Below, one piece after another: positions 1 through 37,795 of a stretch of 64,000 nucleotides of DNA. The DNA lies in NCBI GenBank assembly GCA_029782225.1, contig JAKOVF010000005.1:12949-76948 (forward strand), read 5' to 3'. The position numbers and the translations under genes are program-made. The notes beneath the pieces were generated by a model, which had not been told where the DNA came from, did not search any database, and worked only from the letters and a program-made list of their open reading frames with translations. Each line of letters starts with the position of its first letter. Positions within the stretch are counted from its first letter, which is position 1. The DNA is from Chloroflexota bacterium. Lineage in GTDB: Bacteria; Chloroflexota; Anaerolineae; Anaerolineales; Villigracilaceae.

Positions 1-110
1 AAGATATGAACTTCATCAAAAAGGTTTCCAGGGTTGTAATACCTATCAGTAATCTCTCCTTTTTGGATGAGACTAGACAGTGAATCTGGAATGATAACAA
101 GTAATTTCAT
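1..110 (-). CDS. Partial CDS (N-terminus only, MKLLVIIPDSLSSLIQKGEITDRYYNPGNLFDEVHI...) running off the window edge; function unknown
   Basis: Reverse-complement translation of bases 1-110 gives an open frame with the ATG at 108-110. It is not in the ORF track because it has no stop inside the window. Confidence 0.3.
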   Translation of the reverse strand, partial: MKLLVIIPDSLSSLIQKGEITDRYYNPGNLFDEVHI

Positions 111-117
111 ACGCGCT

Positions 118-852
118 TTAGAGTTTTTGCATTAATACGCAGATCTCAGTTGCAAATGGTTTGAGATAATAGCCCGCCCACATTCTTTGTTTGATACTCA
201 GATCAGCCAGAAAATTTCTTCCGAATAGATTGAATTGATTGAGGCCATAACCGAAATACCCGAGCGGAGTTAATTTAGATTTTTTCCCAAGCTGGTAGAT
301 CTCTCGTGCTGTGTATTCTCTGTAATGCATAATAGCCGACAAAATCGGCTGCTCACCTCGAAGTATTCTGATGATGTTTTCGATTCTCAACCGGTTGGGG
401 GTGCAAATCGCAACTACACCACCCTTCGCACAACTTCGCACACAGGACTTCAAATATTCGGCGGGGCGGTTAAAGTGTTCGAATACTGCAAAACTCACCA
501 CGAGGTCGTATGGCTCTCTGGGAGTAAAAACAAGAAAATCGTGTACGCTTCGCTGAACTTTGAGGTGAGGATATTCGGCATTGGCTTTAAGCACGCTTTG
601 CTCTGAATAATCAATAGCGTCGACACGCTTGACGAAAGGATACTGCACCATCAAAACGTCTTGATAGCCGCATCCACAGCCAACATTTAATACTGTGGCT
701 GGCTGAACCCGGCGAAACAGTTGCTGGATCTCAAATGTTCTAGAATAATCCCAGTCTGAAGATAAGTATGTTCCCCATTCCTCGGTGATCTTCTCATCGA
801 AAAATTGTCTCTGATCTTCAATATATTCTGGATATCGATCTTGAACTGGCAT
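118..852 (-). CDS. Class I SAM-dependent methyltransferase
   Basis: Motif I VLNVGCGCGY is followed by an acidic residue. Its length and local context fit a glycan-modifying methyltransferase. Confidence 0.75.
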   Translation of the reverse strand: MPVQDRYPEYIEDQRQFFDEKITEEWGTYLSSDWDYSRTFEIQQLFRRVQPATVLNVGCGCGYQDVLMVQYPFVKRVDAIDYSEQSVLKANAEYPHLKVQRSVHDFLVFTPREPYDLVVSFAVFEHFNRPAEYLKSCVRSCAKGGVVAICTPNRLRIENIIRILRGEQPILSAIMHYREYTAREIYQLGKKSKLTPLGYFGYGLNQFNLFGRNFLADLSIKQRMWAGYYLKPFATEICVLMQKL

Positions 853-924
853 TTACTCAACTCCTCTTAAATGTGAAACCAACAATATTGACTGAAACCA
901 CCCGGTATTCCCGACCCGGAAGAA

Positions 925-1854
925 TTAGATGGGATAGCCCCAACAAGCCAGATCCCGGTCAAGCCATACCGAAGTTCTATAGTTGCTGACAGCATAAAAA
1001 GATCGGATGAATGCTTCATCAGCTTCACTCAATATCGGTGGACGCTTACGAATTGAGGACAGTTTCCTGAATGTCAAGCCGAGTTTTCGAAGTAGTCCTC
1101 GAAGGGCAGACTGTTCTTCAGGCACCAAACTGTAAGAAGTGGAAAGCGCCTTGTTTTGGTCTGCCTCTGATAGGTCCATGGGAAAGAAGGGTACTTCTAA
1201 AAACCTACATAACCCGTGTAAAACGTTTTCCTCATCACTGGCAATCTCCTCTAGGATCATTACATGGATATTTTCTTTGCCAAAACAGGCTGCATATGAT
1301 TCAAGCAGCCGGTCATAGGCAGCAGCATAGGCTGCCGCCTTTCCCTCGAGCGTGCTCAGAAAATCGACGAAAAAACAGCGCCCAGCCGGGAAGTGTGGAA
1401 GATAATGCAGATACATAGAACGAAACCAATCAAATTGGTTCCTCAAAACAATGAGAATCCGGGCATCAGGTAAAGCATGTTTAATCCTGCGCGCTAGTTC
1501 AGCATGGTCAGGCGAAATCACCGTTCCATCCATACGGCCATTCAATTTAACTGCCCAGTGAGCAGACCATTCTGGATTGATAGAAGTAGAATAATCTTTC
1601 TGAGGTGTCTCCTTAAGAACATATCCCAAGGAAAGGCTCTCATACATGTCAATAAAACATGAGGCTGATTGTTCGTTCTCAAAAAATTTTAGATATCTCT
1701 GTTTTCGAATCTCATCGTCCGATTCGAGTTGAAAAAACCAGGCTCTACGGGTCCAATGAATACTTGGATGCTGAGTGAAATAGCTTCGTAGATAGGTTGA
1801 GCCTGACCTCATATAGCCAACGTAAACGATATTTGGTTTGGTATGGTTATCCAT
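925..1854 (-). CDS. Sulfotransferase family protein
   Basis: A 5'-PSB-like YMRSGSTYL motif near the N-terminus and a 3'-PB-like RNQFDWFRSMY motif are typical of PAPS-dependent sulfotransferases. Confidence 0.65.
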   Translation of the reverse strand: MDNHTKPNIVYVGYMRSGSTYLRSYFTQHPSIHWTRRAWFFQLESDDEIRKQRYLKFFENEQSASCFIDMYESLSLGYVLKETPQKDYSTSINPEWSAHWAVKLNGRMDGTVISPDHAELARRIKHALPDARILIVLRNQFDWFRSMYLHYLPHFPAGRCFFVDFLSTLEGKAAAYAAAYDRLLESYAACFGKENIHVMILEEIASDEENVLHGLCRFLEVPFFPMDLSEADQNKALSTSYSLVPEEQSALRGLLRKLGLTFRKLSSIRKRPPILSEADEAFIRSFYAVSNYRTSVWLDRDLACWGYPI

Positions 1855-1937
1855 AGGTATCCTCTTCGCCTGCCATGCACATTACTTAAATTAACCAAAT
1901 CAGAAGGTAAATCCAGCCACTTATTGATCTGGTCCTG

Positions 1938-2753
1938 CTACAACTTCTCGCAAACAAGAATATGCCGAAAGGCAAACAACTTCAATAACGGCAAATTACT
2001 GATCCACTCATCCAGCAGTTTACCCTTAACTCGCCGGGATAATAATTGTGTCCAGACCGGCAGCAAGAACAGCTTGAGCCATTTGGGACGATCGCCTCCC
2101 CATAATGGGAGTATCTGAAAGGTGCGGTGCTCCACGATTTTCATCCCTGCTTGATGGATCATCCTTTTCATGGCCGGCACGGAAACCGCATAATTTTGGG
2201 CCCATCCCAGTTCTTTATGGTAAGCATTGACTACGATCACATTTAACGAATACAGGTTACCCAGGTCAAGAATACATTTGCCAGTGGGTCTTAAAACCCG
2301 TGCTATTTCGCTGATCACCATGCCAACATTGGGGATTACATACAGTGAGGAAAAGGAATAAGCAAGATCGAAGGAGTTTGACCGAAATGGCATTCTGCAG
2401 GCATCGCTGCAGGCATAGCGCGTGTTTTGCAAATCTTTTGTAATTTTGTCCTTGTTGGCTTTTTGGAGATAAGGCAGGCTAAAATCCACTCCGGTGCATG
2501 TCTGCATTCTGCCGGCAAATCCCATGAGGTGCTGGCCTGTTGCGCAGCACACATCCAGGACATTTGAATGGTCGGCATAAAAGTGAACTAAATCCAAGCG
2601 GATCTTCAACAAGATATCGCTATAGGTCTCTGGAACCGGGGGCGGCAGATGGTTAATGGTGTCGACCGTATAAATTCCTTCTTTTGTGAAAAGGTCCCGC
2701 TGGTCTGACGCTTGTTGAATATCTGTGGTTTTATCTACAGGTTCAAGCTTCAT
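1938..2753 (-). CDS. Class I SAM-dependent methyltransferase
   Basis: Motif I VLDVCCATGQHLMGFA. The reading frame overlaps the downstream gene by 11 bp, consistent with an operon. Confidence 0.7.
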   Translation of the reverse strand: MKLEPVDKTTDIQQASDQRDLFTKEGIYTVDTINHLPPPVPETYSDILLKIRLDLVHFYADHSNVLDVCCATGQHLMGFAGRMQTCTGVDFSLPYLQKANKDKITKDLQNTRYACSDACRMPFRSNSFDLAYSFSSLYVIPNVGMVISEIARVLRPTGKCILDLGNLYSLNVIVVNAYHKELGWAQNYAVSVPAMKRMIHQAGMKIVEHRTFQILPLWGGDRPKWLKLFLLPVWTQLLSRRVKGKLLDEWISNLPLLKLFAFRHILVCEKL

Positions 2754-3918
2754 TGCTTTTCTTTCCCAGTAAACCAGTCAATCCCAGCAGAAGCTTTCTC
2801 ATGAGGCTGATCATCTTCCTGCCCAAGATCACCGTCGACAGGTCACGACTCGCGTTTAGCCAATTTCTGATTATTGTTTTCTTGTCCGGCATCAATTTCG
2901 CCTCCACCGGAGTCAAAACTGCCGGCGATTCAGGTTCCGGCTGCGGCATAATCAGTTCGCCTCTAAACAACCGGTGCAATTCTCCGCCAAACTTGCCTTT
3001 GAAATCGGTCAGTCCTTTATCTTTCCCTTCGGCTGCGTTGGGGAAAGCCTCGCCGGTTTCATACCATGCACACCCATCCGCTTTTGCAGCCAGGACTGCT
3101 TCCCAAAAGAGGAGGTAGTTAACACCCGATTTCAGATGTGCTGTTTCTGAGCAACCCGTGTGATAGAGCTCCGATGAAGAAAAACGCGCATCATTGTGAA
3201 ATGCAACGGGGGATCCGTCCGGAGAAAAACCTACCCAAAGGATATGATGTGAGTCTGGTTGCGCGGCGATGCCTTCGAAATACGATTTAGGGTGCGACTG
3301 GACACCGGTGCGTTGATAGGTTTCAATGTGAACGCGATAATACTCATCGACCATTTCCCTCCAGGAACATCTGCGGGCTGAATATCCGGCGGAGCGTGCC
3401 TGTTTAATTTTTTGCCTTGCATCCTTTGCCATTCCGAACCACAGATCCTCTTCGCTCTGTAGAAGATCAATGATCCGTGTATGCGTTGAAACGTCCGTAA
3501 AACCGACTTCAACGAGGGGATTCACACCCCAGCCGTTCTTCAATGAAGATTGACAAATTGGACTAATAACAACTGTTATTCGCTCTGCACAAAACTGCGC
3601 GGCTATATCCCTGGCGCGTGCCCAACATGCCTCCCATAAGCGCTGGCGAACCGCCCTTGAAGCACCAGCTGCGATCACCGGGCCGCCATGGCCCCAGCCG
3701 CTCGAAGATAATCTTTTTCCGGCTGAAATCCAATGAAGCGGCATGATAGCAACCAGTTTGCCGTTCTCACGGACGGCAAAACTGAGCTGCTGCATATTCC
3801 AAACGAGGGTGACCATCTCAAGCCATTCAGCCAGGCTGAATACCCATCCATCCTCTGAATGGTAGACAATCTCATCCCATTCCCGTGCTTTTATTTGATT
3901 AAATCCAATAAATTCCAT
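2743..3918 (-). CDS. FemAB-like / Acetyltransf_6 (BioF2-like GNAT) family protein. The real start is probably the internal MEFIGF codon at 3918.
   Basis: The ~370-aa overall layout resembles FemAB/GNAT-like acyltransferases common in polysaccharide loci. The internal ATG leaves an 8-bp gap to the upstream asnB-like stop. Confidence 0.45.
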   Translation of the reverse strand: MEFIGFNQIKAREWDEIVYHSEDGWVFSLAEWLEMVTLVWNMQQLSFAVRENGKLVAIMPLHWISAGKRLSSSGWGHGGPVIAAGASRAVRQRLWEACWARARDIAAQFCAERITVVISPICQSSLKNGWGVNPLVEVGFTDVSTHTRIIDLLQSEEDLWFGMAKDARQKIKQARSAGYSARRCSWREMVDEYYRVHIETYQRTGVQSHPKSYFEGIAAQPDSHHILWVGFSPDGSPVAFHNDARFSSSELYHTGCSETAHLKSGVNYLLFWEAVLAAKADGCAWYETGEAFPNAAEGKDKGLTDFKGKFGGELHRLFRGELIMPQPEPESPAVLTPVEAKLMPDKKTIIRNWLNASRDLSTVILGRKMISLMRKLLLGLTGLLGKKSNEA

Positions 3919-3926
3919 GGACGTTA

Positions 3927-5816
3927 TTATCCGCTCTTTATCATTGTCTCTGCTGGAGATGTGTGGCTTAACCACATACCAAGCATAAACCCCAACATCA
4001 TATCCCCAGCTGACGCTCGAAGCTTGACTCCAGCACATAGATCTGCAATAAACTGCTTCCAAGCTGAGCGATAGGACTCTGAATCTATGCCGGCCTGATC
4101 CAAAGCATCATAGGCACGAACAAATGCAGTCCGATAATTTGGATCGTCAACGATATTGTTTTGCCAGCGAAGATTAAAACCCATTCCTTTCTTGCGAGCC
4201 CAGGCAATTTCCTTTCCGACCAGTTTTTCGTAGAAAAGTTTTGGTAGATACTTATTTGTTTTGGGCGAGAAAGGATCTGCCACCTTGTATTGGTGAGGCA
4301 GCCTGGCCGCGAACTCGATCAGACGGTAGTCAAGGTACGGACTGCGGACTTCCACCTGCGCAGCAAGCCCGGAGATATCAGGCAAACGGTAATTGCTGTC
4401 ACTCGTGGAACAAAGCAAGTTCAGATACATCAACCGATCCAGAAAATTATCCACCCCCGCCTCGGTAATATCCTTCATGATCCTGTCAACCATTGAGAGC
4501 ACCGCATTCCCAGTGGGTGTAGCTAATTCCCCGGGAGAGAGACGCGCGCTGAGATTGGAATAAACATAATTTCCCCACATTCCTGCGAGCGAATCTGCCT
4601 GTTTTTTTATTCCAAAATGGCGATGAAGAAACGGCAGACGTTGAAATCGTTCCAAGTCATCCTTGCGGGCTACCTCGTCCCCGATATAACCAGTAAAAAT
4701 TTCATCCGATCCATTGCCGCTTAAAACCACCTTTGCGAGTGGACGTATGGTCTCATAAAGCCGGTGTGAATAGACCAGCGGAAGCTGTACAGACGGCTGG
4801 TCATAAAATGAATAAGTACGCGGCAGGCCGCTGAGCAAGTCCTCATGGTAGTTAAATTGAATATATCGCCAGGTCAAACCCAGCTCACGCGCGACGCGTT
4901 CCGCAATCATTGTCTCAGGGCTGGGATCGTCATCCGTGTGATAGTCGATTGTGTAACAATCCAGAGAGACATTCAATCGTCGAGCACAGAGCGCAGCAAT
5001 TGTCCCGGAATCAACGCCGCCCGAAAAGGTGAGAGCAAGCGGCACGTCGGAACGCAGACGAATGGCAATGGCATCCGTCAACAGAGTTTCGTATTCTTCA
5101 AGCAACTGAGAAAGCGAGCGGCGGCTTTTCCTGCGGAGGTCCATCTGCCAGTAGCGGCCCACTTGCGGGACCGGATTCTCGGGACTGACCCAGGCAAAGA
5201 AAGCCGGTGGAAGCGCCCTCGCTTGCTCATACACGGTCAGCTCGAGAGGAAAGCCTGCGACCAGACGGTACAATTCGATCGCACCGATAGACAGTTTGCC
5301 GGTCCAACCCGGAATAGAGCGAAAGGCATCGAGCGTAGAGGCAAAATAAAAGTCACCGCCAATTTCGCACCAAACCAGCGGCTTCTTGCCAAGCCGGTCG
5401 CGCGCCAGAAACAGTCGCTTTTTCTGCGTATCCCAGATTGCAAAGGCAAACATGCCATTTAGATCCTCGCAGACATGTTCCCCTTTCAACTTGAACCCTT
5501 CCAGAATTGCCTCGGTATCGCTCTGAGTCTCGAACCGGGCACCCATCCGCTCGTAGGCGGTGCGTAATTCTTTGTAGTTATAGATTTCGCCGTTGTAGAT
5601 GATCACATATCGCTTGCTAACATCCCACATCGGCTGGTGACCGGTTGTCAGGTCAATAATGCTCAAGCGGGAATGGAAAAAATGAAGGTTTTTCTCATCG
5701 CTCCATTCATCCTGTTCATCGCGCCCGCGATAAAGGATGCTGGATCTCATGTACCGGGTTGTTGTCTCCGGGATTCGTCCAATATCAGTTGAGATGATGC
5801 CGGCAATTCCGCACAT
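3927..5816 (-). CDS. Asparagine synthase (glutamine-hydrolysing) family amidotransferase. In a glycan locus this is probably a uronic-acid amidating enzyme.
   Basis: An MCGIAGI N-terminal Ntn Cys2 nucleophile fixes the start at 5816. An SGGVDSG PP-loop ATP pyrophosphatase motif lies in the C-terminal half. Confidence 0.85.
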   Translation of the reverse strand: MCGIAGIISTDIGRIPETTTRYMRSSILYRGRDEQDEWSDEKNLHFFHSRLSIIDLTTGHQPMWDVSKRYVIIYNGEIYNYKELRTAYERMGARFETQSDTEAILEGFKLKGEHVCEDLNGMFAFAIWDTQKKRLFLARDRLGKKPLVWCEIGGDFYFASTLDAFRSIPGWTGKLSIGAIELYRLVAGFPLELTVYEQARALPPAFFAWVSPENPVPQVGRYWQMDLRRKSRRSLSQLLEEYETLLTDAIAIRLRSDVPLALTFSGGVDSGTIAALCARRLNVSLDCYTIDYHTDDDPSPETMIAERVARELGLTWRYIQFNYHEDLLSGLPRTYSFYDQPSVQLPLVYSHRLYETIRPLAKVVLSGNGSDEIFTGYIGDEVARKDDLERFQRLPFLHRHFGIKKQADSLAGMWGNYVYSNLSARLSPGELATPTGNAVLSMVDRIMKDITEAGVDNFLDRLMYLNLLCSTSDSNYRLPDISGLAAQVEVRSPYLDYRLIEFAARLPHQYKVADPFSPKTNKYLPKLFYEKLVGKEIAWARKKGMGFNLRWQNNIVDDPNYRTAFVRAYDALDQAGIDSESYRSAWKQFIADLCAGVKLRASAGDMMLGFMLGMWLSHTSPAETMIKSG

Positions 5817-5827: not shown

Positions 5828-6715
5828 TTAAGCCTTGTTGGCGTCCTCGACCCAAAACCCATCCGGATATCCATACCAGGCCGGGATTCTGCCTTGCATC
5901 GTATCGCGCAAAAAGCGAACATCCGCTTCGGATAAATACTCGTGATACCCACCAACCTGGCCTTTGCGCACATGAAATGCTTCCTGCGTGCTCGCCGTGT
6001 CTCCCGTCGCAAAAATCGGCAACCCGGAGCTGGAGTAGACAAGGGTCCGGGTATGTCGATTATCCATTTCCAGCTTCCGCATATTCTTGAAATCACTGAA
6101 AGCAACGGCTTGACCTATGTAATCCTCACGGATCGGAATCTGAAAAAACTCCAGGAGGCGACAAAACTCTTCGGCGGGTTTAAATCGTAAATCCTCGTAA
6201 CGCATCAGCATTAGCTTTGGGATAGAGAGTCGTCCAGCCTCCCAGAGCTGAAGGAAGGCTACTGCTTTTTCAACGCCCTGAACCGGATTGCGAATGTATT
6301 CAGAAATGTCGCCCTGATAAGGCGGGGTTGCCTGTGTCTTTGCCTGCCAGAATAGAGAAACCAAAACGTCCGGGATATTGCGAACCAGAAGCATGACGTT
6401 CGTATGACGCCAACACGAAACGGTATTCTCCATCGTCAGGTCGGCAGCTGTTTGATAAGTCCATTCCAAATTCCCATGCGTGAACTGAATCAATGGTACG
6501 CGAGGATCGATGTATTCGAACTGGTCAAACAGCGGTAACGGTAATTTCTCATCCCGCCCTGTGAACAATTGGACATACTTGCCCAACATCACACGCAGCC
6601 AGGTTGTGCCAGATTTAGGATAGCCAACCACATAATATTCCTGCAACGCCGGGTGTATATCCTCTCGGGTCTTCCGGCCAAACCACTTTTGGAACTTGGT
6701 CAATACTCTTTTCAT
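5828..6715 (-). CDS. Sulfotransferase domain protein
   Basis: Canonical 5'-PSB motif YPKSGTTWL and 3'-PB-like LLVRNIPDVLVSLFW. The start was chosen at MKRVLTK (6715) to avoid a 62-bp overlap with wzt; this start is uncertain. Confidence 0.75.
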   Translation of the reverse strand: MKRVLTKFQKWFGRKTREDIHPALQEYYVVGYPKSGTTWLRVMLGKYVQLFTGRDEKLPLPLFDQFEYIDPRVPLIQFTHGNLEWTYQTAADLTMENTVSCWRHTNVMLLVRNIPDVLVSLFWQAKTQATPPYQGDISEYIRNPVQGVEKAVAFLQLWEAGRLSIPKLMLMRYEDLRFKPAEEFCRLLEFFQIPIREDYIGQAVAFSDFKNMRKLEMDNRHTRTLVYSSSGLPIFATGDTASTQEAFHVRKGQVGGYHEYLSEADVRFLRDTMQGRIPAWYGYPDGFWVEDANKA

Positions 6716-6737: not shown

Positions 6738-8054
6738 TCAAGGGCTGAAAACTTGCCACTCCGAACGTTGTGCAAAAGATGTCTCAGACTGTGAAACATT
6801 GCTGCCGTTTAGATAATCGTCAATATCTACATTGATATGAATCGTGTCGCTGATACTATCCAGCCAGCGCTTATCATCTTTGCTTACAACCTGACCGATC
6901 GTGACCATAAGAATATAACTTCCACCCACCAGCAGCAATTCTGGAATCACGCATTCAAGGTAGCCATCTCCTGAAAGCTTTAATTCCGAGCGCGAGTGGT
7001 GTACCCCAACCGTCATGACCTGCAGGCCCGTATAGTTCAGGAAGTTCACGTTGCAAAAAGCAGAAAGATCCTCGTTCAGATGAAATCCAATCCGGATTCG
7101 CAATCCTCTCCCTGTCTTGAACTCAACCGATTCAGTCCCGTCCATATTGTGAGTGGAAATCCAGGTGAGGATCGGTTTGCTTCCGTCCCAGCGCTTGACG
7201 TTCTCCCGCAGGTCAAGATAACTGATGCGAGGACGTCCACCTTCGGCTCGAAGGCGTTCTTCATCAATCTGGTGAATATCCTTCAGGTACCTTTCGGTGG
7301 TGGCATGAGCACTTCCCCAATAAAGGATCCTGCCTCCATCTAAATATAATCCCCGGTCACATAAACGTGCTATGGAAGTAAGCGAATGGCTCACAAACAA
7401 TACTGTTTTCCCGCTTCTGGCAGCGCCCTCCATTTTATCAAGACTCCTTTTTTGGAAAGTCGCATCTCCAACAGCCAGCACTTCATCCAGAATCAGGATC
7501 TCCGGGTCAAAATGGGCGGCCACTGCAAAAGCCAGACGGACGTACATTCCGCTTGAGTAATGTTTGACCGGGGTATCAATGAATTTCTCAACCCCTGAGA
7601 AATCCACGATCTCATCAAACACCCGATCTATTTCGGCGCGTTTCATGCCAAGAATAGCCCCATTCAAGTAAACATTCTCTCGCCCGGTCAACTCCGGATG
7701 AAAACCTGTGCCAACCTCAAGCAGGCTACCCACCCGGCCATAGAGGTCAACTCGTCCACAAGTCGGGGCTGTCACCCTGCTCAAGATCTTAAGCAGGGTG
7801 CTCTTTCCTGAACCATTACGTCCGATGATGCCCAGCACCTCCCCGCGTTTTAGTTCAAAGGAAACATCCTTTAGCGCCCATAGCTCATCTAGTTGATCAG
7901 CGCCGATACGCGCCAGCCGGGGATCAAAAATCCGGCGCACCGCACGCGCAAAGGAGGTGGTTGCTGATTGAATCAGCGTATCAGGCCTCTGCTTGGCCGC
8001 GCCAATGTAATATAGCTTGCTCAGATTTTCCACACGCACCATAACATCATTCAT
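6738..8054 (-). CDS. wzt: Polysaccharide ABC exporter ATP-binding protein, Wzt/TagH-like, with a ~180-aa C-terminal extension
   Basis: Walker A GIIGRNGSGKSTLLK, an ABC signature and a Walker B ILILDE. The NBD is followed by an extra beta-rich C-terminal domain, as in Wzt proteins that bind capped glycan termini. Confidence 0.85.
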   Translation of the reverse strand: MNDVMVRVENLSKLYYIGAAKQRPDTLIQSATTSFARAVRRIFDPRLARIGADQLDELWALKDVSFELKRGEVLGIIGRNGSGKSTLLKILSRVTAPTCGRVDLYGRVGSLLEVGTGFHPELTGRENVYLNGAILGMKRAEIDRVFDEIVDFSGVEKFIDTPVKHYSSGMYVRLAFAVAAHFDPEILILDEVLAVGDATFQKRSLDKMEGAARSGKTVLFVSHSLTSIARLCDRGLYLDGGRILYWGSAHATTERYLKDIHQIDEERLRAEGGRPRISYLDLRENVKRWDGSKPILTWISTHNMDGTESVEFKTGRGLRIRIGFHLNEDLSAFCNVNFLNYTGLQVMTVGVHHSRSELKLSGDGYLECVIPELLLVGGSYILMVTIGQVVSKDDKRWLDSISDTIHINVDIDDYLNGSNVSQSETSFAQRSEWQVFSP

Positions 8055-8998: not shown

Positions 8999-9185
8999 TA
9001 GGGTCCATCGAGTCCAAGGATTTCACTTATAATGTCAGTTGAGATCTTATAGTACTTTTGTCAAGTTGCCTGACAGTTCTGTGAGGCGGGTACAGCCACA
9101 ATGAATTTAGAATGCTAATAGATGTGGTTTTATCCATATAATAAATTCAGGGAATTTGTACTACCTCACCGTTTTGGAGGAACCA

Positions 9186-29885: not shown

Positions 29886-29898
29886 AGATACGAAATGA

Positions 29899-30336: not shown

Positions 30337-30978
30337 ATGAGAGACAGAGTTCTCGATGAGCAAATCGAATACTATCGTGCCCGCGCGCAGGAATATGCCG
30401 CGTCCATTTCAAGCACAGTTGAAATGTTTGAGCCTGGAAGGGCCATGCTGCTCCAACTGGGAAAGTTTGACCAGATCCTTGAACTGGCGTGCGGCACGGG
30501 ATTTTGGACAGAAACCCTGTTGAGAATGGGAAGTCAGGTCACCGCCGTGGACGCCGCGCCGGAAATGCTCAATATCACGAAAGCAAGGCTCGGCGAGGAG
30601 CGGATCAAATATCAGCAGGCAGATTTGTTTCAGTGGGAGCCGAAGGGAGAGTATGACCTTGTATTCTTTGCAAACTGGCTATCGCATGTCCCGCCCTTTG
30701 CGCTGGATGATTTTCTGGATAAAGTTCGCCGCGCCATCCACCCGGGTGGATACCTTGCCATCGTTGACCAGCATGCCCCCAGCAACACCGATAAGGAAGT
30801 GGCGAAGGAGTATATCTACGCCACGCGTCCGCTGGAGAATGGACGTCAATTCACTATCGTAAAGGCGTTTTACAAGCTTGATGATCTACAGAAAAAACTG
30901 GAACGCCTGGGCTTTGAAGTCACAGTAAGCAAATTCGCAGATGTGTTCTTCTTTCTTGCCGGAAAGCGAGCGAAATAG
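30337..30978 (+). CDS. Class I SAM-dependent methyltransferase
   Basis: ILELACGTGFWTE motif I followed by VTAVDAAPEM. The stop of the upstream gene and this start are fused (TGAATG). Confidence 0.75.
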   Translation: MRDRVLDEQIEYYRARAQEYAASISSTVEMFEPGRAMLLQLGKFDQILELACGTGFWTETLLRMGSQVTAVDAAPEMLNITKARLGEERIKYQQADLFQWEPKGEYDLVFFANWLSHVPPFALDDFLDKVRRAIHPGGYLAIVDQHAPSNTDKEVAKEYIYATRPLENGRQFTIVKAFYKLDDLQKKLERLGFEVTVSKFADVFFFLAGKRAK

Positions 30979-31391: not shown

Positions 31392-32621
31392 CTACTGACT
31401 GGAATTATCTGGCAACTGTTTCTGATCTGAATTGCTGTTTTCGGCAGTTCCATTTTTGCCTTGTTTTTCCAGTAAACCTTTAGCCAGATTAGTTAGTTCC
31501 AAAGGCAGAATATATTTTGTTGCGTTTCCCTCACCCAGGCTCTTAAGCGTGTCGTAGTATTTCAGGGATTTTGTTTTTTCATCCATTTCAGTTGCCGCCT
31601 CATTAAGCATCCTTAAGGCCTGTGCTTCTCCATCTGCCTCAATTACTGTCGCTTTTCTTTGCCATTCCGCCGAGACTTGTTTGTGCATTGAATCTACAAT
31701 TTCCTTGGGCGGTTTGATCTCCCGGATCTCCATTGTTGTAACATAAACACCCCAATCCGCACTGATCTCATCGATCTTTTGCTTTAGCAGATCATTGATG
31801 CTTTCTCGCTGGTTCAACACATCATTGAACTTAAAGTGAGCAATAACAGCACGCAGAAGGGCGGTTGCCAGCAAACGGATCGACTCTTCAGCGTCAGTTA
31901 CTTTGGTTATGCTCCAAATCGGTTCTTGTATCTTCCAGTAGAATACAAAATCAACATCGAGTTGTACATTGTCTTGTGTAATACAGGTTTCATGAGGGAC
32001 TTCTTGATGTTTTACCCGTAGGTCCACGCTTTGAGGTTTATCAAGAAACGGAAGAACCAATATCGGCCCTGGACCCCGCTTTCCAATACACTTTCCTAAT
32101 CGAAAAATGACAAGGTTTTCAAATTCGGGAACCTTGCGAAACGACATGATGAAATAGCCAATTAACAACGCGATAATAAAAATGTAAATTGTTATTGCCA
32201 GAATGGTATGCAGTAACCCACTCATATTTAGCAGGTAGATTACAAAAAACAGTGTTACGAATGTGACAGGGGTTATGATCCAATAAATAAACTCTGGAAA
32301 TGAACCGAATGGATGTATATTCCATTTATCAGAATCCCTTTTAGCTTTCTTCTCATCAATTGGCTTAGGAATGTTGTATCCGAGGCTTAACAATAAATTC
32401 GATCCTTCTTTTGAGAGTCGATAACCATCGCTTTCGATCTCAACAGTTTTGTTCTTTTCAAGCAATACAATGCGATTCCAGATCTCACCCATAGGTTGAC
32501 CTATAGCTCTGGAAATCTCATGAACCGAGAAATGCTTCTTGCTGCGCAGGAACAGGAGGATCTGAAGGGATATTTGATCCAGTGAAATAACTTCAAGATT
32601 AGGTTGCATACATTCCTCCAC
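31392..32621 (-). CDS. SPFH/band-7 (stomatin-like) domain protein with an N-terminal winged-helix domain and two TM helices
   Basis: N-terminal ~75 aa look like a wHTH (SVHEISRAIGQP...VLLEKNKTVE...YRLSKEG), followed by two hydrophobic helices. The SPFH core runs LVIFRLGKCIGKRGPGPILVLPFLD...VQLDVDFVFYW...ATVIEADGEAQA. The region is noticeably AT-richer than its flanks. Confidence 0.7.
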   Translation of the reverse strand: MEECMQPNLEVISLDQISLQILLFLRSKKHFSVHEISRAIGQPMGEIWNRIVLLEKNKTVEIESDGYRLSKEGSNLLLSLGYNIPKPIDEKKAKRDSDKWNIHPFGSFPEFIYWIITPVTFVTLFFVIYLLNMSGLLHTILAITIYIFIIALLIGYFIMSFRKVPEFENLVIFRLGKCIGKRGPGPILVLPFLDKPQSVDLRVKHQEVPHETCITQDNVQLDVDFVFYWKIQEPIWSITKVTDAEESIRLLATALLRAVIAHFKFNDVLNQRESINDLLKQKIDEISADWGVYVTTMEIREIKPPKEIVDSMHKQVSAEWQRKATVIEADGEAQALRMLNEAATEMDEKTKSLKYYDTLKSLGEGNATKYILPLELTNLAKGLLEKQGKNGTAENSNSDQKQLPDNSSQ

Positions 32622-32680: not shown

Positions 32681-33886
32681 TCAATCCAATTTCGGGTTTG
32701 CCCTGCGCATCACCCTCTCTTCCCTCTTCATCCACGTAAACTTCTCCACTTCTCGCTGCGCTTGGGCGCCCAGCATCAGCCTGCGTGCTTCATCTCGAAG
32801 CAAAGACTCAATCGTCAGTCTCCAGGCTCGAATTATCAATTCTGAATTACCACTTACTTGCTGGTCTCGATAAGGCAGGATAGCACTGCCTACTCGACCA
32901 GATGTTGGTTCACAAAACACCGCATTCCCCTCATTCAACACTTCCCGGATCGACGGCAGATCCGCTGAAACTATGGCGCGCCCGGCGGCCATGTACTCGA
33001 ACATCTTCATCGGGTTAATGACTTCGGCGATGTCCTGTCCGCTGCTGCCTTCCACCGAGCGGCTATAGGGCATGAGCAAAATGTCCGCGGCGGCCTGATA
33101 AAGCGGGATCTTTTCATGCTGGAGGAAGCCTGTCATCGTAACGTTCGTTACATGCGCTTCGCCCAGCTTGCCACGCCAAAGTTCCACCAACTCAGGCGTC
33201 CCACCCACCCACAAGAACCGGACCTCTGGCATCTGTTTCGCCAATTCGAACAACAGGTCCGCGCCGCGGCCGGGGTAGATGTGGCCCGTGAATCCAACGG
33301 TTGGACATTCGGGCAAATCCAACTGACGACGCGCTTCCGAGGGATCAGGCAATCCCGTGTAGCGCTCGAGTTCGACGCCGTTCGGCGCGACCAGCACCGC
33401 ATCATTCGGGAACTTGAGCTGGGTCGAACGTTCTAGTGCATTTCTCAACGCTGACGTAGTCACCGTCATCAGCTTGCGGCCGCGCGCCTTCCAGAATTGA
33501 CTCAGCCACCACGCGCCCATGCGCCCGGCCACGTCCGCATGCATTTCGAGGATGGCAGGATAGCCGAGCCAGAGTCCCAGCGCGGCAGATTGCGGCAGCC
33601 AGGTATAAATCAGGTCTGCGTGGAAGCGTCTCGCGGCAAGCGCGGCGTGGAGGATAAAGTCAAAGCGTTTGAGATGCCGATTTGACGGAAGCCATTCAAG
33701 GTCAGGAGTGGAGCGCAGACCGTAATGTGAGGCGAGGGCCTGTTTGGAAACAGCGTCGCCTTCACGAGGGGCGAACATGCAAATTTCGTGATCCAACTGA
33801 ATCAAGGCCTGTGCGACCTTCATCGCCTGGATCGAATTGGCCGTGAGGGAGGGAATCCGCGAGTTGGTGATGAGGGCGATTTTCAT
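32681..33886 (-). CDS. Glycosyltransferase family 4. Start at MKIALIT.
   Basis: MKIALITNSRIP N-terminus, typical GT-B layout, and a C-terminal GFTGHIYPGRG...EGSSGQ sugar-donor binding region. Confidence 0.75.
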   Translation of the reverse strand: MKIALITNSRIPSLTANSIQAMKVAQALIQLDHEICMFAPREGDAVSKQALASHYGLRSTPDLEWLPSNRHLKRFDFILHAALAARRFHADLIYTWLPQSAALGLWLGYPAILEMHADVAGRMGAWWLSQFWKARGRKLMTVTTSALRNALERSTQLKFPNDAVLVAPNGVELERYTGLPDPSEARRQLDLPECPTVGFTGHIYPGRGADLLFELAKQMPEVRFLWVGGTPELVELWRGKLGEAHVTNVTMTGFLQHEKIPLYQAAADILLMPYSRSVEGSSGQDIAEVINPMKMFEYMAAGRAIVSADLPSIREVLNEGNAVFCEPTSGRVGSAILPYRDQQVSGNSELIIRAWRLTIESLLRDEARRLMLGAQAQREVEKFTWMKREERVMRRANPKLD

Positions 33887-35190
33887 TTGATTTCCTGCAC
33901 GCCGCGCCAAGCCATGATACCCACCGATGAAATGTAGTAGAACGAAAGCAGGACGCCGGCACCCACAATGCCGAACTGCGGGATCAGCCAGAATGCCAGC
34001 CCAAGCTTGATGAGGCCAACAGTGAGTGTGACATAGATGGGAATTTCAGGCAGCCCCAGCGAAAGCAGCAACGGTCGATTCCAGAAGAGAGTGTAGTTGA
34101 AGACGAGGCCAACTGTGAGGGCGATCAGCGCAGGATAAGCGGCGAGATATTCTTCACCCGAGTAAATGATGATAACCCAGCGGCCCAAAAGGATGAGGCC
34201 CAGGCCGAGTGCAAGATTATATGCGAAGGAAAGCGCGGTGATCTTACGCAGGAAGTCACGCAGGCGCGGCCATGCCTTTTCCACGATGAGGCGGTTGATT
34301 TCAGGGAAGGTGGTCGAGATGAGCGGGTCGGCAGGGACGGCAAGGAAACTCACAAGGGTATAGGCGATGCTGTAATATCCTACGGCCGTTTTGGTGAGAA
34401 AGAAAGCCACCCACAGCAATTCACTCTCGCGGAAGATCTTGATGATGGTCGCACTGATGTTGGAACTCACCGCGAAGCGGATTAGTTCGCGCGGCGACGT
34501 AAGCGAGGTGAGAGGCTGCTTCCACCAGCCACCGCCGAGGGCGCGATGCAATTGCAGCTGTGCCGTAATGAACAGGCCGAGGCCGAGGATCGTTTTGCTC
34601 AACAGGTATGCAACCAAAACGATTTGCAGGGTGCCGCTCCATATATAGGCGGCCACGATGATGAGCGATGTAATGACGCTTTGTGCAAGATTAAGTGTGC
34701 CCTGCCATTTGATCCTGTCTGTGACCTGTAAAATGCCCGTGGATGTCTCTGTATTGAAGTTCGCCAGCAGGCCGAATGCGTAGAATGAAAACATCCATGC
34801 CACGCCGCTGGTCTTGGCAAAATAACGCTCGGCCAGTCCCGCCGAGAACACGACGATCAAAAACGCCAGCATGGACACGGCAGCTTCGGTCAATCCGGCA
34901 GCTTTCATAAGGGCGGAGGCCCTTTCCTTTTCCCCTTTGGCCAGATATTCGCCTCCATAGCGTACGACCAGTTCGCTCATCCGAAAGGACAGAATGCTGT
35001 TGATCGTGGATGCATACACCATCACGACCTTGAGGAGGCCCAGTCCTTCCGGCGCGAGCAGGCGTGCAACCAGGGCTCCCTGAATAACGCTCAATCCCAG
35101 GCTGAGAGTATTGCTGGTAAATAAATGTGCGCTGGAACGGAGCACACGCGTAAACAAAGGATCTGATTTGACTCTGGAGAGCAGAGACAT
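33883..35190 (-). CDS. MOP-superfamily polysaccharide flippase (Wzx-like)
   Basis: About 12-14 TM helices and a 'polysaccharide biosynthesis protein' family pattern in the N-terminal region (SNTLSLGLSVIQGALVARLLAPEGLG). Confidence 0.65.
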   Translation of the reverse strand: MSLLSRVKSDPLFTRVLRSSAHLFTSNTLSLGLSVIQGALVARLLAPEGLGLLKVVMVYASTINSILSFRMSELVVRYGGEYLAKGEKERASALMKAAGLTEAAVSMLAFLIVVFSAGLAERYFAKTSGVAWMFSFYAFGLLANFNTETSTGILQVTDRIKWQGTLNLAQSVITSLIIVAAYIWSGTLQIVLVAYLLSKTILGLGLFITAQLQLHRALGGGWWKQPLTSLTSPRELIRFAVSSNISATIIKIFRESELLWVAFFLTKTAVGYYSIAYTLVSFLAVPADPLISTTFPEINRLIVEKAWPRLRDFLRKITALSFAYNLALGLGLILLGRWVIIIYSGEEYLAAYPALIALTVGLVFNYTLFWNRPLLLSLGLPEIPIYVTLTVGLIKLGLAFWLIPQFGIVGAGVLLSFYYISSVGIMAWRGVQEIK

Positions 35191-35254: not shown

Positions 35255-36241
35255 CTATAGCGTCAGGACTTCCTTTGCCCATTCACGTTCTTCGTTATAC
35301 CAGGCAATCAGGTTGGCAATTCCCTCCCGCAAGTTGACCTGTGGATTCCAGCCGAGCATTTCGCGCGCCTTCGACACGTCTGCCTGATTGGTGAACATAT
35401 CCGCCAGATTGGGCGGTCCATACTGGACTTTGGCCTGCTTGCCAGTCAATTCTTCGATCATCTCGACCAGTCCATTAATCGTGACAACTTCGTGGCCGCC
35501 AAGGTTGATGATCTCGTAGCCCAAAGGCTTGAGGGCGGCAATCGTCCCTCGTGCAATATCGTCCACGTAGGTGAAGCCGCGCGATTGTTGGCCGTCCCCA
35601 TAAATCCTGACCGGTTCGCCTTCCGTGATCCACTTTACGAAGCGGAACATGGCGAGGTCCGGGCGGCCCGCCGGGCCATAGACGGTGAAATAGCGGACAA
35701 CAGTCACATCGATGTCGTAGAGATGATGATAGGAGTGGGCGATCGCTTCCGCCCCTTTTTTGCTGGCCGCGTAAGGCTGCATAGGTTCACTGCTGGAGGC
35801 GGTTTCAGGCGTCGGGTAGGGAGGATTCGCCCCATAAATGCTGGAAGTGGAGGCGAGCACGAATTTCCTGCATCCATGTTGGCGACAGATTTCCAGCATG
35901 TTCAGCGTGCCAGTCACATTGGATTCGAGAAATACCCAGGGATCTTCCACGCTGTAGCGGACGCCGGCGCGCGCAGCGAGATTGATCACGCCGTCAAATT
36001 TCCGGTCTACGATTGCCGAATGGCGATTGATGATACCGCGTTCAGAGATGTCATCGCGGATAAACTGGAAGCCATCCAGCGCCTGCAGCTTTTTCAGGCG
36101 ATGTTCCTTCATACGGGGGTCGTAGGCGTTGTTCATGTTGTCAATGCCAACGACCGTATGTCCCTGCTCGATCAGCATTTGCGAAGTGCGTGCGCCGATA
36201 AAACCTGCCGCGCCTGTGACCAGATAATGTCCCATCGTCAT
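35255..36241 (-). CDS. NAD-dependent nucleotide-sugar epimerase, UDP-glucuronate 4-epimerase-like
   Basis: YLVTGAAGFIGAR Rossmann motif, DNMNNAYDPRMKEHRL and a YAASKKGAE catalytic YxxxK, with the overall pattern of GalE-like UDP-uronate epimerases. Confidence 0.75.
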   Translation of the reverse strand: MTMGHYLVTGAAGFIGARTSQMLIEQGHTVVGIDNMNNAYDPRMKEHRLKKLQALDGFQFIRDDISERGIINRHSAIVDRKFDGVINLAARAGVRYSVEDPWVFLESNVTGTLNMLEICRQHGCRKFVLASTSSIYGANPPYPTPETASSSEPMQPYAASKKGAEAIAHSYHHLYDIDVTVVRYFTVYGPAGRPDLAMFRFVKWITEGEPVRIYGDGQQSRGFTYVDDIARGTIAALKPLGYEIINLGGHEVVTINGLVEMIEELTGKQAKVQYGPPNLADMFTNQADVSKAREMLGWNPQVNLREGIANLIAWYNEEREWAKEVLTL

Positions 36242-36320
36242 CTCCCTGTCAAAAGCGCCGGAGTGTCGAAATGTCAGAATGTCGATCCGACACTTTTGAC
36301 ACCTGACACTCCGACACAGA

Positions 36321-37643
36321 TTAAAGTCTCACAACCTTATCGCTATTCTTTCCGAGTTTTCCTGTTGCATTCCGTGAGTCAAAGACGAATTTCGCCGCGT
36401 CAATGATCGCCTTGTAATCGTAGACCGTGTGGTTGGTCACGATGACCACGGCATCTGCCTCCTTCACGGCCTGCATCATATCCTTGACCGAGTCCATGTG
36501 CCAGCCATCATATTCATGATGAATATGCGGGATGTAAGGATCATGATACTGTACCTTTGCGCCTTTTTTCTGTAGCAGGCCGATCACATCCAGCGACGGT
36601 GATTCGCGGACATCGTCAATATCGGGCTTGTAAGCCGCGCCGAGCACCAGGACCTTGCTCCCCTTGAGAATCTGGCCGCGGTCATTCATGGCATCCAACA
36701 TGCGGGTCACAACGTAACGCGGCATGTTCGTGTTGATCTCAGATGCCAGCTCGATGAAGCGCGCATTGTAATGGAAGGATTTCATCTTCCACGAAAGATA
36801 AAGCGGATCGATCGGGATGCAGTGTCCGCCCAGGCCAGGACCTGGTGTGAATTTCATGAAACCAAAGGGCTTCGTAGCCGCTGCATCGATCACCTCCCAT
36901 ACATCCACCCCGAGGCGTTCGCACATGATCGCCAATTCATTGACCAGACCGATGTTGATCATGCGGAAAGTGTTCTCCAACAGTTTGGACATCTCCGCTG
37001 CTTCTGCAGAAGAAACCGCATGGATATGCTGGATCGCGCCGGCATACCAGGCCGCGGCAACTTCGCTACAGCTTTCCGTAATGCCGCCCACAACCTTCGG
37101 AGTGTTAAGTGTGGTGAAATCCTCGCGCCCTGGATCGACGCGCTCGGGCGAGAATGCCAGGAACCAGTCCTCGCCCACGGTCAAACCATTGTCCGTGCCA
37201 AGTTTTGGAAGGAGCAGTTCCCGTGTCGTGCCTGGATAGGTGGTGGATTCAAGCACAACAACCATGCCCTTGTGCATGTACTTCGCCAACTCATCCATGG
37301 CAGAGATGATGAACGACATATCGGGATCGCCCGTTTGACGCAGCGGCGTCGGCACACAAATGCTGACCGCATCCATTTGCTTGAGCACCGAGAAATCAGT
37401 GGTCGCAGTCAAATGGCCGGATTGCACCAGCCTGGTGACTGCCTCAGTCTTCACGTCCGGGATATAGGATACGCAATTGTTCAGCGAATTGACCTTGCGC
37501 TCATCTGGATCCACGCCTGTAACGTGGAACCCCGCCTCCCCAAACACGACAGCCAATGGCAGACCAACGTACCCAAGTCCCAGAATGGCAATACTGGCTT
37601 TCTTTTCTTTCAGGTTACTGATGAGTGTTTCTTTCGTAGACAT
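36321..37643 (-). CDS. UDP-sugar 6-dehydrogenase family (WbpA/WecC-like). Start at MSTKE.
   Basis: IAILGLGYVGLPLAVVF NAD-binding motif and a catalytic Cys region GGHCIPID. The internal start is supported because a repeat-element copy occupies the upstream in-frame extension. Confidence 0.85.
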   Translation of the reverse strand: MSTKETLISNLKEKKASIAILGLGYVGLPLAVVFGEAGFHVTGVDPDERKVNSLNNCVSYIPDVKTEAVTRLVQSGHLTATTDFSVLKQMDAVSICVPTPLRQTGDPDMSFIISAMDELAKYMHKGMVVVLESTTYPGTTRELLLPKLGTDNGLTVGEDWFLAFSPERVDPGREDFTTLNTPKVVGGITESCSEVAAAWYAGAIQHIHAVSSAEAAEMSKLLENTFRMINIGLVNELAIMCERLGVDVWEVIDAAATKPFGFMKFTPGPGLGGHCIPIDPLYLSWKMKSFHYNARFIELASEINTNMPRYVVTRMLDAMNDRGQILKGSKVLVLGAAYKPDIDDVRESPSLDVIGLLQKKGAKVQYHDPYIPHIHHEYDGWHMDSVKDMMQAVKEADAVVIVTNHTVYDYKAIIDAAKFVFDSRNATGKLGKNSDKVVRL

Positions 37644-37649
37644 TTTTTC

Positions 37650-37795
37650 CTTTTTGATGTCATGGCGAGACGGTGCTTTCCCGAAGGGGTCCAAGCAATC
37701 CCCAATTTGGCAAGAGGGAGCTGCTCAGTGAGATCAGCCCACTTAGCGAGAGATTGCTTCGCACACGGTCCTGCGTTCGGTGCAGGGACGTGCGC
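37650..37795. repeat. MITE-like imperfect-palindromic repeat, copy R4
   Basis: Left arm tgtcatggcgagacggtgc...ccaagcaatcccc and right arm gagattgcttcgcac...gcgctcgcaatgacataattaac. These align with the copies at ~38455, ~50520 and ~61030. Confidence 0.6.

Follow-up and report, generated by a model that had tools for sequence, protein, structure and literature searches.

A probable Anaerolineales cell-envelope glycan locus with a conserved backbone and a rare candidate sulfation and amidation cassette downstream of Wzt

Organization and conservation of the locus

The DNA described here is a 64,000-nt window of contig JAKOVF010000005.1 from a Chloroflexota bacterium (Villigracilaceae), and the system in question is a probable cell-envelope glycan locus that fills its first 37.7 kb. 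All coordinates and strand labels are window positions, and gene starts were refined from gene calls on contigs of the same organism. Proteins were identified from an open reading frame (ORF) listing together with profile searches (Pfam, NCBIfam) and PDB searches of the window proteins. Read from right to left along the minus strand, the locus encodes a UDP-N-acetylhexosamine 6-dehydrogenase (UGDH), a short-chain dehydrogenase/reductase (SDR), the flippase Wzx, the glycosyltransferase GT4b, an SPFH protein, the polytopic protein P564, the GDP-mannose dehydratase Gmd, a PMT_2-family protein, a GT2 glycosyltransferase and a flippase-like LPG_synthase_TM protein. The order continues with DUFb, DUFa, GT4a, a 2-epimerase, a MarR-type regulator, WbpB, WbpD, WbpE, Wzm, Wzt and, last, a cassette of modifying enzymes.

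The right border near 37.7 kb, beyond which UDG, GNAT, TsaB and TsaE follow, is real and conserved, since UDG also borders the locus in L005 (related loci carry L numbers throughout). The left end is open at the window edge. A GT4 gene that starts at position 110 on the minus strand leaves the window there, and a contig of the same organism, L084, shows the complete GT4 followed by a polysaccharide-deacetylase-like gene. In the original prediction, which was made from the letters of this stretch and placed the locus at 1-37,700, the right border and nearly every gene call are correct and correctly positioned; the left border and the number of methyltransferases are not. That prediction also lacked a FemAB/Acetyltransf_6 protein, the SDR, which resembles UDP-uronate 4-epimerases, the MarR-type regulator, the LPG_synthase_TM protein, two secreted proteins, a glyoxalase and the SPFH protein. 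The GC content is 0.43-0.49 in 1-4000, where ST_A, MT1 and MT2 of the cassette lie, and 0.48 at 30001-32000, over the insert with a methyltransferase gene (MT4) and the SPFH gene, against 0.52-0.58 elsewhere. This suggests horizontal acquisition of the low-GC segments, and the low value at the left end fits the expectation for an acquired variable region. Neither tRNA genes nor Rfam matches occur anywhere in the window, and there are no tandem DNA repeats in 9-13 kb.

All window proteins were compared by tblastn with 47-48 loci, at least 17 kb long and centred on a DUF gene, with 10-kb flanks that limit the counts. Out of 48 loci, the DUF and GT2 genes are present in 48, the flippase-like gene in 47, Gmd in 46, GT4a in 45, P564 in 42 and PMT_2 in 32. 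These core genes occur in 37 of the 47 species-representative loci, WbpBDE in 15 and Wzm-Wzt in 21. In the 15 loci, WbpB, WbpD and WbpE are all at least 60% identical to the window proteins (typically 72-85% in the loci printed, with medians of 76-82%), and the WbpE orthologues within this conserved triad are 79-83% identical. All 15 share the order P564-Gmd-PMT_2-GT2-flippase-like-DUF-GT4a-MarR-WbpB-WbpD-WbpE, and 12 of them go on into Wzm-Wzt; L032, L034, L040, L051, L053, L060, L061, L063, L064, L069 and L073 are among the loci with this order. Several loci also have UGDH-SDR-Wzx-GT4b upstream, and the arrangement is UDG-UGDH-SDR-Wzx in L005 and UGDH-SDR-Wzx without UDG in L006. Ca. Villigracilis species, CFX2, CFX11 and a 4.9-Mb Anaerolineales genome are represented among these loci. 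The backbone from UGDH to Wzt is typical of the Anaerolineales lineage. The gene combination had been called unusual for Chloroflexi, which is not so for this collinear backbone but does apply to the cassette and, less so, to the 2-epimerase WbpI (5 of 47 loci).

The cassette and the Wzt C-terminal domain

Each of the cassette genes is on the minus strand. The first, directly downstream of Wzt, encodes ST_B (5828..6715), a Sulfotransfer_1 protein (PF00685, 75 bits) that starts 22 nt after Wzt and ends 11 nt before the next gene on the same strand. Its motifs PKSGTTW, RNIPDVLVS (RNxxDVxVS) and C-terminal RKGxxGG are present, and it aligns with human SULT1A across both motifs that bind 3'-phosphoadenosine 5'-phosphosulfate (PAPS). 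Only about 20 homologues at 50% identity or more are found among 5.8 billion proteins. The other sulfotransferase, ST_A (925..1854), belongs to Sulfotransfer_3 (PF13469, 73 bits), matches a bacterial sulfotransferase structure (PDB 3rnl, 2.8e-11) and has a 5'-phosphosulfate-binding (5'-PSB) motif, YMRSGSTYL, and a 3'-phosphate-binding (3'-PB)-like motif, LRNQFDWFRS; the only orthologue found is in L085 (59% identity). NCBIfam has nothing for either sulfotransferase. Next to ST_B lies an AsnB-type glutamine amidotransferase (3927..5816), with 329 bits to TIGR01536 (cut-off 267), 149 bits to GATase_7 and 163 bits to Asn_synthase; the sequence MCGIAG at the called start provides the N-terminal nucleophile Cys. 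It is followed by a 391-aa FemAB/Acetyltransf_6 (GNAT-fold) protein (2743..3918; TIGR03019 62 bits, below cut-off) that has no solved (PDB) relative and is predicted to N-acylate or aminoacylate an amino sugar. In L085 (12828-15233) a single protein of 801 aa combines a FemAB/Acetyltransf_6 part with a DegT aminotransferase, which hints that the FemAB-like enzyme acylates an amino sugar produced by a transaminase. The remaining genes encode the class I S-adenosylmethionine methyltransferases MT2 (1938..2753; orthologues 51-74% identical in L085 and L088-L090) and MT1 (118..852; 51-66% in L085, L088, L089 and L090) and, last in the window, the 5' end of the GT4 (1..110; 414 aa in L084, Glycos_transf_1 83 bits). 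ST_A, ST_B, MT1 and MT2 have no transmembrane segments, and both sulfotransferases are soluble. Neighbouring genes here overlap or are 2-83 nt apart.

The AsnB-family enzyme and the two PAPS-type sulfotransferases of the original prediction are genuine: the amidotransferase profile is above cut-off with a Cys after the initiator Met, and the sulfotransferase profiles are also above cut-off, with 5'-PSB and 3'-PB motifs in both proteins. The five methyltransferases from which heavy decoration had been deduced do not all exist. There are four class I methyltransferase genes in 1-37,700 (at 118, 1938, 29133 and 30337) and no free space for a fifth; the latter two lie in a non-conserved plus-strand insert by a glyoxalase gene and may act on something other than the glycan. 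The methyltransferases have only generic profile matches.

Since the sulfotransferase genes are more than 10 kb from the DUF anchor of the tblastn survey, the distribution of the cassette was surveyed with ST_B homologues as anchors. The cassette recurs in four other metagenomic loci, L085, L088, L089 and L090, with the shared order (WbpI-MarR-)WbpB-D-E-Wzm-Wzt-ST_B-(MT)-AsnB-FemAB-like-MT-MT-GT4-(MT-deacetylase). ST_B comes immediately after Wzt in five loci, namely the window and all four others that have both genes. The GT4 always closes the cassette, and a polysaccharide deacetylase comes next in three loci, L088-L090. An ST_B homologue with 55% identity is also found with FemAB-like, methyltransferase and AsnB genes in L086 (4203-12397, Anaerolineales H71_742) and L087, where the neighbours of the cassette are not Wzm-Wzt but Wzx, an MBOAT acyltransferase and an FGE-sulfatase-family gene. 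Its position beside Wzx in these two loci indicates that the cassette is mobile between export routes.

Sulfated bacterial glycans have precedents (PMC8205485, PMC11641403, PMC11766843). In the sulfated loci of Synechocystis (synechan, xss) and of marine Vibrio and Cobetia capsules, genes for PAPS-type sulfotransferases lie within the polysaccharide cluster, as they do here (PMC8205485, PMC11641403, PMC11766843). Those loci use Wzx/Wzy or other routes, whereas the sulfotransferase here is coupled to Wzm-Wzt, in a member of the Chloroflexota, and travels with AsnB, FemAB-like and methyltransferase genes. A literature search found neither the locus nor sulfotransferases for the glycan synthesis of Chloroflexi described, and one mat metagenome study reported its two Chloroflexi metagenome-assembled genomes (MAGs) without sulfotransferase genes.

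The exporter consists of the ABC-2 permease Wzm (8057..8911, minus strand), identified by profile matches, and the ABC ATPase Wzt (6738..8054, minus strand), which has a probable carbohydrate-binding-type domain at its C-terminal end (about residues 266-438). Both match NCBIfam galactan-exporter models below cut-off. The Wzt_C score of 22.8 bits is below the Pfam cut-off of 30.4, which the L034 orthologue exceeds at 41 bits, and the window protein aligns with full-length Aquifex aeolicus Wzt (8dku) over residues 56-401, through the carbohydrate-binding domain. In 22 loci that do not have the cassette, Wzt orthologues share 48-63% identity with the nucleotide-binding domain (residues 1-265) of the window protein, whereas its C-terminal 173 aa have no match there even at E = 10; 18 of these loci have complete Wzt ORFs. 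In the cassette loci the C-terminal domain is 58-63% identical in four out of four, including L090, where the nucleotide-binding domain is only 65% identical. The association of domain and cassette (4/4 against 0/18) has a Fisher probability of about 1.4e-4 when relatedness is ignored.

The gene that follows Wzt varies among relatives. Of 12 relatives, five encode a methyltransferase there (TylF, FkbM/RfbT or class I), three a glycosyltransferase, one a KpsC/S-like protein and three a protein of no recognized kind. The variable region of L035 has a KpsC/KpsS-like Capsule_synth protein (18097-19680), and that of L034 (19329-20390) has a TylF methyltransferase and then a NeuB nonulosonic-acid synthase. 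This variety suggests serotype-like diversity of chain ends across Anaerolineales. In capping-dependent export, which is established (PMC9445017, PMC3482155), Wzt reads a modified chain end, and the variable gene after Wzt together with the co-variation of the C-terminal domain match the pattern that would be expected for such a mechanism. As in E. coli O9a (WbdD/Wzt) and A. aeolicus, an ABC-2 permease is paired with an ATPase that has a C-terminal domain, and modifying enzymes are encoded directly after Wzt. Also as in those systems, the nucleotide-binding domain is conserved and the C-terminal domain changes with the enzymes encoded downstream. The difference is that the place directly after Wzt is taken by a PAPS sulfotransferase and not by a methyltransferase or kinase, and no WbdD-like coiled-coil ruler is seen.

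Sugar supply, membrane enzymes and neighbouring genes

The nucleotide-sugar enzymes, all encoded on the minus strand, resemble those of the Wbp/Wlb pathway. UGDH (36321..37694; TIGR03026 444 bits) belongs to the WbpA/TviB/WecC clade and scores 232 bits with Cap5O, 230 with 4r16 and 212 with a GalNAcA dehydrogenase, against at most 146 with UDP-Glc dehydrogenases; it reaches no equivalog cut-off. By clade and pathway logic it would have a WbpA or TviB-type role. A function like that of WecC is unlikely, because the locus has a single epimerase, which is of the WbpI type, and no UDP-GlcNAc 2-epimerase as a feeder. The WbpB/WlbA-type UDP-GlcNAcA 3-dehydrogenase (14604..15545), a Gfo/Idh/MocA protein, matches 3o9z of Thermus thermophilus (358 bits, E 5e-106) and 3oa2 of P. 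aeruginosa (340 bits, 1e-100) over the full length, with the next family at 33 bits (E 4e-7). The WbpD/WlbB-type 3-N-acetyltransferase (14000..14593), a left-handed beta-helix protein, matches 3mqg at 2.3e-66 over residues 6-187, and its next match is at 7e-41. The WbpE-like pyridoxal-phosphate-dependent sugar 3-aminotransferase (12906..14003; DegT 434 bits) is the third member of the conserved WbpB-D-E triad. Its scores are 411 bits with 7b0d, 350 with the DesV-like 2oga, 340 with QdtB and 297 with WbpE. The higher-scoring relatives are 3-aminotransferases where the function is known; 7b0d is named by automatic annotation only, and no paper on this entry was found. On this basis the protein is assigned to the 3-aminotransferase clade.

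The WbpI/WlbD-type UDP-GlcNAc3NAcA 2-epimerase (16204..17280) scores 413 bits with the T. thermophilus UDP-GlcNAc3NAcA enzyme 8sxv, against 319 with an archaeal and 127-194 with bacterial UDP-GlcNAc epimerases. In the UDP-GlcNAc3NAcA enzyme, Ala18, Tyr96 and Trp307 replace the Leu/Met, His/Gln and Arg of UDP-GlcNAc enzymes (Thoden et al. 2023, PMC10622841). The window epimerase shares these Ala, Tyr and Trp substitutions, which accommodate the 3-N-acetyl group and the C6 carboxylate, in K20-A21 (FIK-A), Y97-G-D99 (VY-G-D) and T-E-W303, positions that were matched by motif inspection without a printed alignment. Since the epimerase is present in only 5 of 47 relatives, the gluco-form is probably the default of the lineage. 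Homologues of all five enzymes of P. aeruginosa O5 (WbpA/B/E/D/I), Bordetella pertussis (WlbA-D) and T. thermophilus HB27 are found here, and WbpB, WbpD and WbpI match solved enzymes far better than other families. The arrangement differs from the known pathways in that the dehydrogenase gene is about 19 kb from the other four, the host phylum is reported to be without lipopolysaccharide (LPS), and the aminotransferase is closer to 7b0d than to WbpE.

The SDR gene (35255..36241) adjoins UGDH, and its product is most like UDP-(N-acetyl)hexuronate 4-epimerases (6zl6 194 bits, MoeE5 168 bits). The enzyme probably also yields a 4-epimer of a UDP-uronic acid, so a galacto-configured uronic acid may be made as well. 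In P. aeruginosa O6 (WbpO/WbpP/WbpS, for UDP-GalNAcA and AsnB-type uronamide formation) and Vi (TviB/TviC) a dehydrogenase likewise lies beside an SDR epimerase, and an AsnB-type amidotransferase with an N-terminal Cys is present here; the closer relatives of the SDR are UDP-GlcA 4-epimerases, not WbpP or TviC. By analogy with WbpS, the substrate of amidation may be a uronic acid. Because a 4-epimerase-like SDR adjoins the dehydrogenase, GalNAcA-type residues are equally possible as the amidated uronic acid. Gmd (26235..27197) is a GDP-mannose 4,6-dehydratase (TIGR01472 438 bits, cut-off 415). The MarR/HTH_24 regulator (15567..16031, beside WbpB) occurs in 28 of 48 loci and scores 51.5 bits with MarR_EPS, below cut-off.

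The membrane enzymes form a second group, also on the minus strand. DUFa (18412..20382) and DUFb (20388..22349) are polytopic paralogues with 47% identity, and P564 (27288..28982, 564 aa) represents a second Anaerolineales-only family besides that of DUFb. The GT-C membrane fold is found in these three proteins and in the PMT_2-family glycosyltransferase (24216..26054; 42 bits, cut-off 26). DUFa, DUFb, P564 and the 826-aa surface protein described below have no Pfam match at E up to 10, and DUFa has none in NCBIfam. At least 2346 homologues of DUFb and at least 1659 of P564 exist, annotated as hypothetical and essentially without Pfam hits, and the named sources are all Chloroflexota or Anaerolineales. 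Relatives of DUF occur in 291 stretches of species-representative genomes, and among the best 80 every title that names a lineage is Chloroflexota. Profile-profile comparison finds no relationship between the DUF and P564 families (probability 0.7%), which are separate families with only the fold in common. Invariant acidic residues follow an early transmembrane helix in both, D115, D124 and D129 (YTDAHRRD) in P564 and E174 (PFSxGWSEA) in DUF, as a candidate catalytic motif. Additional DUF copies with 29-34% identity lie about 8 kb downstream of the main copy in many relatives, among them L003/L004 (19144), L005 (18423) and L011 (18236 and 20404). The tandem pair in the window matches two orthologue groups, each single in different relatives.

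The GT2 protein (23260..24219) is a polyprenyl-phosphate sugar synthase of the ArnC/GtrB type, with 222 bits to the ArnC model over the full length and C-terminal transmembrane helices; it could supply the sugar donor to the GT-C enzymes. The LPG_synthase_TM protein (22346..23263; TIGR00374) is present in 47 of 48 loci, and the PMT_2, GT2, flippase-like and DUFb genes overlap by 4 nt each. As in the three-component ArnC/ArnT and GtrA/B/C modification systems, an ArnC-like GT2, a small polytopic flippase candidate and a GT-C protein are encoded in one overlapping operon. Here, however, the GT-C genes number four and fall into three families unrelated in sequence, and the flippase candidate belongs to the MprF-flippase-domain family. 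The Wzx-type MOP flippase (33883..35190; Polysacc_synt 62 bits) adjoins the core gene for GT4b (32681..33910, profile match), and the other core glycosyltransferase of this kind is GT4a (17264..18403; 45 of 48 loci).

Several further claims made at the outset are borne out by these comparisons. A Wbp-type 2,3-diacetamido-uronic acid pathway that includes the manno-epimer is supported, strongly by WbpB, WbpD and WbpI, by clade for WbpE and by clade and pathway logic for WbpA; the WbpB- and WbpD-like proteins fall into the Wbp/Wlb families in the profile and PDB comparison with wbp enzymes and not into unrelated pathways. Four GT-C-like enzymes accompany a GtrB-like enzyme, as had been proposed for assembly steps on the outer face, and a MOP flippase and an ABC-2 exporter do coexist in the locus.

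Two blocks, at 9.2-12.8 kb and 29.1-32.6 kb, are strain-specific. The first encodes, on the plus strand, an 826-aa secreted or anchored protein (9185..11665) with a signal/anchor sequence, a jelly-roll-like domain and five tandem repeats of about 95 aa with two Cys each, and P331 (11864..12835), a membrane-anchored protein with a linker of about 190 aa rich in Pro/Thr/Ser/Gly and a C-terminal domain that is 32% identical to part of the 826-aa protein. Both are absent from the 47 related loci and have no NCBIfam match; they may be glycoprotein substrates or glycan-binding proteins. The second block contains the plus-strand methyltransferase, glyoxalase/VOC and methyltransferase genes (29133..30978; 0-1 of 48 loci), whose membership of the pathway is doubtful, and a non-conserved insert with the SPFH/Band 7 membrane protein (31392..32621, minus strand). 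Just outside the locus, a GT28 glycolipid glycosyltransferase similar to monogalactosyldiacylglycerol synthase is encoded at 40354-41520 (minus strand). Farther to the right are a second ABC-2 exporter with a DrrA-like ATPase and two ABC-2 permeases (44135-46951, plus strand), a block of MoxR AAA ATPase, DUF58/VWA, DUF4350 and DUF4129 genes with a membrane protein (53743-59387, minus strand) and, near this block, the folate genes FolP (49634-50518) and HPPK (59472-59948).

Explanations of the locus and their significance

We favour, with moderate confidence, the explanation that this is an Anaerolineales-type cell-envelope glycan locus, in which the genes from UGDH to Wzt form a syntenic backbone shared across the lineage and those beyond Wzt a variable cassette that is rare. 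Homology shows the exporter types, the nucleotide-sugar steps, the GT-C folds, a polyprenyl-phosphate sugar synthase and sulfotransferases that bind PAPS, and all component families are already known. By homology, UGDH, WbpB, WbpE and WbpD would turn UDP-GlcNAc into UDP-GlcNAc3NAcA, which WbpI would epimerise to UDP-ManNAc3NAcA, and Gmd would supply GDP-4-keto-6-deoxymannose. The GT4 enzymes may then assemble a polyprenol-linked polymer at the cytoplasmic face, where the soluble cassette enzymes would decorate it: AsnB by uronamide formation, the FemAB-like protein by N-acylation or aminoacylation, together with the two methyltransferases and the two sulfotransferases, for which operon context points to a carbohydrate acceptor. 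Wzm-Wzt would export the finished chain, with the Wzt C-terminal domain recognising the cassette-specific structure. Outside the membrane, the four GT-C enzymes would add sugars from polyprenyl-phosphate donors made by the ArnC-like GT2 and flipped by the LPG_synthase_TM-type protein, and Wzx would flip a second lipid-linked unit.

It is slightly favoured, by analogy, that the two export routes converge on one wall-associated heteropolysaccharide rather than serving two separate products. The closest working analogy is mycobacterial arabinogalactan and lipoarabinomannan, where a cytoplasmic backbone (the Wzm/Wzt galactan) leaves by ABC export and GT-C enzymes (Aft/Emb) use decaprenyl-phosphate sugars. 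An ABC exporter, several extracytoplasmic GT-C enzymes and a GT2 polyprenyl-phosphate sugar synthase are likewise combined here. Unlike the mycobacterial systems, to which there is no sequence-level membership, the window has genes for diacetamido-uronic acids and a Gmd-derived sugar, its flippase candidate is of the LPG_synthase_TM type and not GtrA-like, and the convergence of two routes is a supposition.

Several observations weigh against the envelope-glycan explanation or parts of it. Among the window ORFs there are no PAPS-synthesis genes (CysC/CysDN-type), no priming phosphoglycosyltransferase or chain-length regulator, no Wzy, Wzz, Bac_transf or MraY-like protein (these may lie elsewhere in the genome), no ligase or LCP-type attachment enzyme and no reductase or aminotransferase acting on the Gmd product. 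The specificity of UGDH is inferred, the best PDB relatives of this enzyme are UDP-ManNAc dehydrogenases, and WbpE is not the best-scoring relative of the aminotransferase. The nearest solved relatives of ST_B are phenol/steroid sulfotransferases and Teg12, Teg14 and StaL, which are small-molecule and glycopeptide enzymes, and the co-variation of the Wzt domain is based on four loci, which are also related somewhat more closely to the window.

The strongest competitor, plausible if clearly less probable, is that two independent glycans are neighbours for co-regulation only, with GT4b, Wzx, P564, Gmd, PMT_2, GT2, the flippase-like protein, DUF and GT4a making a conserved Wzx/GT-C product, and WbpBDEI with the cassette making a serotype-like Wzm-Wzt polymer. 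Such a split would account for the higher frequency of the core genes (37 of 47 loci, against 15 for WbpBDE and 21 for Wzm-Wzt, counts that are limited by the 10-kb flanks), for the concentration of variation after Wzt and for the pairing of the ST_B cassette with Wzx, not Wzm-Wzt, in L086 and L087. It is harder to reconcile with the strict conservation of order and strand across genera wherever both modules are present, with the unbroken junction GT4a-MarR-WbpB and with the position of UGDH, which the Wbp branch needs, at the far end beside Wzx. Glycosylation of S-layer or other surface proteins, in which a GT-C oligosaccharyltransferase (P564 or PMT_2) transfers the exported or flipped glycan to proteins such as the adjacent PT-rich and repeat proteins, appears unlikely. 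The PMT_2 family member and P331, with its Pro/Thr/Ser-rich linker of about 190 aa inside the locus, would suit this role, and Wzm/Wzt is also used, with a methyl cap, by the S-layer glycan clusters of Gram-positive bacteria. P564, however, has no AglB/PglB-like C-terminal soluble domain, its model being helical across all 564 aa, and the surface proteins are absent from all 47 related loci, unlike the GT-C genes, which are conserved.

Still less probable is a non-glycan substrate (lipid, peptide or small metabolite) for the sulfotransferases and perhaps for the whole AsnB/FemAB/methyltransferase cassette. The cytosolic phenol/steroid enzymes and the glycopeptide-antibiotic enzymes Teg12, Teg14 and StaL among the relatives of ST_B point that way, as do the occurrence of AsnB and FemAB families in peptide pathways, with lasso-peptide cyclase and FemAB hits, and the generic methyltransferase matches. 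Against this, ST_B is tightly packed between Wzt and AsnB and follows Wzt in all five loci that have both, the cassette ends in a GT4 with a polysaccharide deacetylase next in L088-L090, the Wzt C-terminal domain co-varies with the cassette, and no peptide-precursor or non-ribosomal peptide synthetase/polyketide synthase genes are present. An LPS O-antigen locus of the ordinary diderm kind is highly improbable and is rejected, even though Wbp genes, Wzm/Wzt and Wzx classically belong to O-antigen systems (PMC10622841). The close homologues are all from Chloroflexota/Anaerolineales, a phylum reported to be without the LPS and β-barrel assembly machinery (BAM) pathways (PMC13319060, citing Sutcliffe 2010/2011), and the window has no waaL or lpx genes.

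What is recognised here as new is a conserved Anaerolineales envelope-glycan locus with two unmodelled GT-C families, together with a rare sulfation/amidation cassette coupled to Wzm-Wzt and a Wzt recognition domain that co-varies with it. A more tentative proposal, doubtful at present, is that this domain reads a sulfated and possibly also methylated non-reducing-end residue made by the sulfotransferase encoded right after wzt. We know of no sulfate cap in the Wzm-Wzt export pathway; if the proposal is true, the sulfate would be a new cap chemistry for ABC-transporter-dependent glycan export. An exporter recognition domain that tracks the cassette also gives a handle on how Wzt domains diversify, and the cassette adds to the rare cases of probable sulfated glycans outside the cyanobacteria. 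The multilayered envelopes of Chloroflexota lack LPS and BAM, and their outer layers are "suggested to be polysaccharide or protein" (PMC13319060). The collinear Anaerolineales locus is an obvious genetic candidate for such an outer layer, and an exported sulfated, amidated diacetamido-uronic acid polymer, if the proposal holds, would be part of it. A MAG labelled Anaerolinea thermophila (L046) encodes a relative of the DUF-family GT-C protein, which makes the question of the envelope layer testable in cultured relatives.

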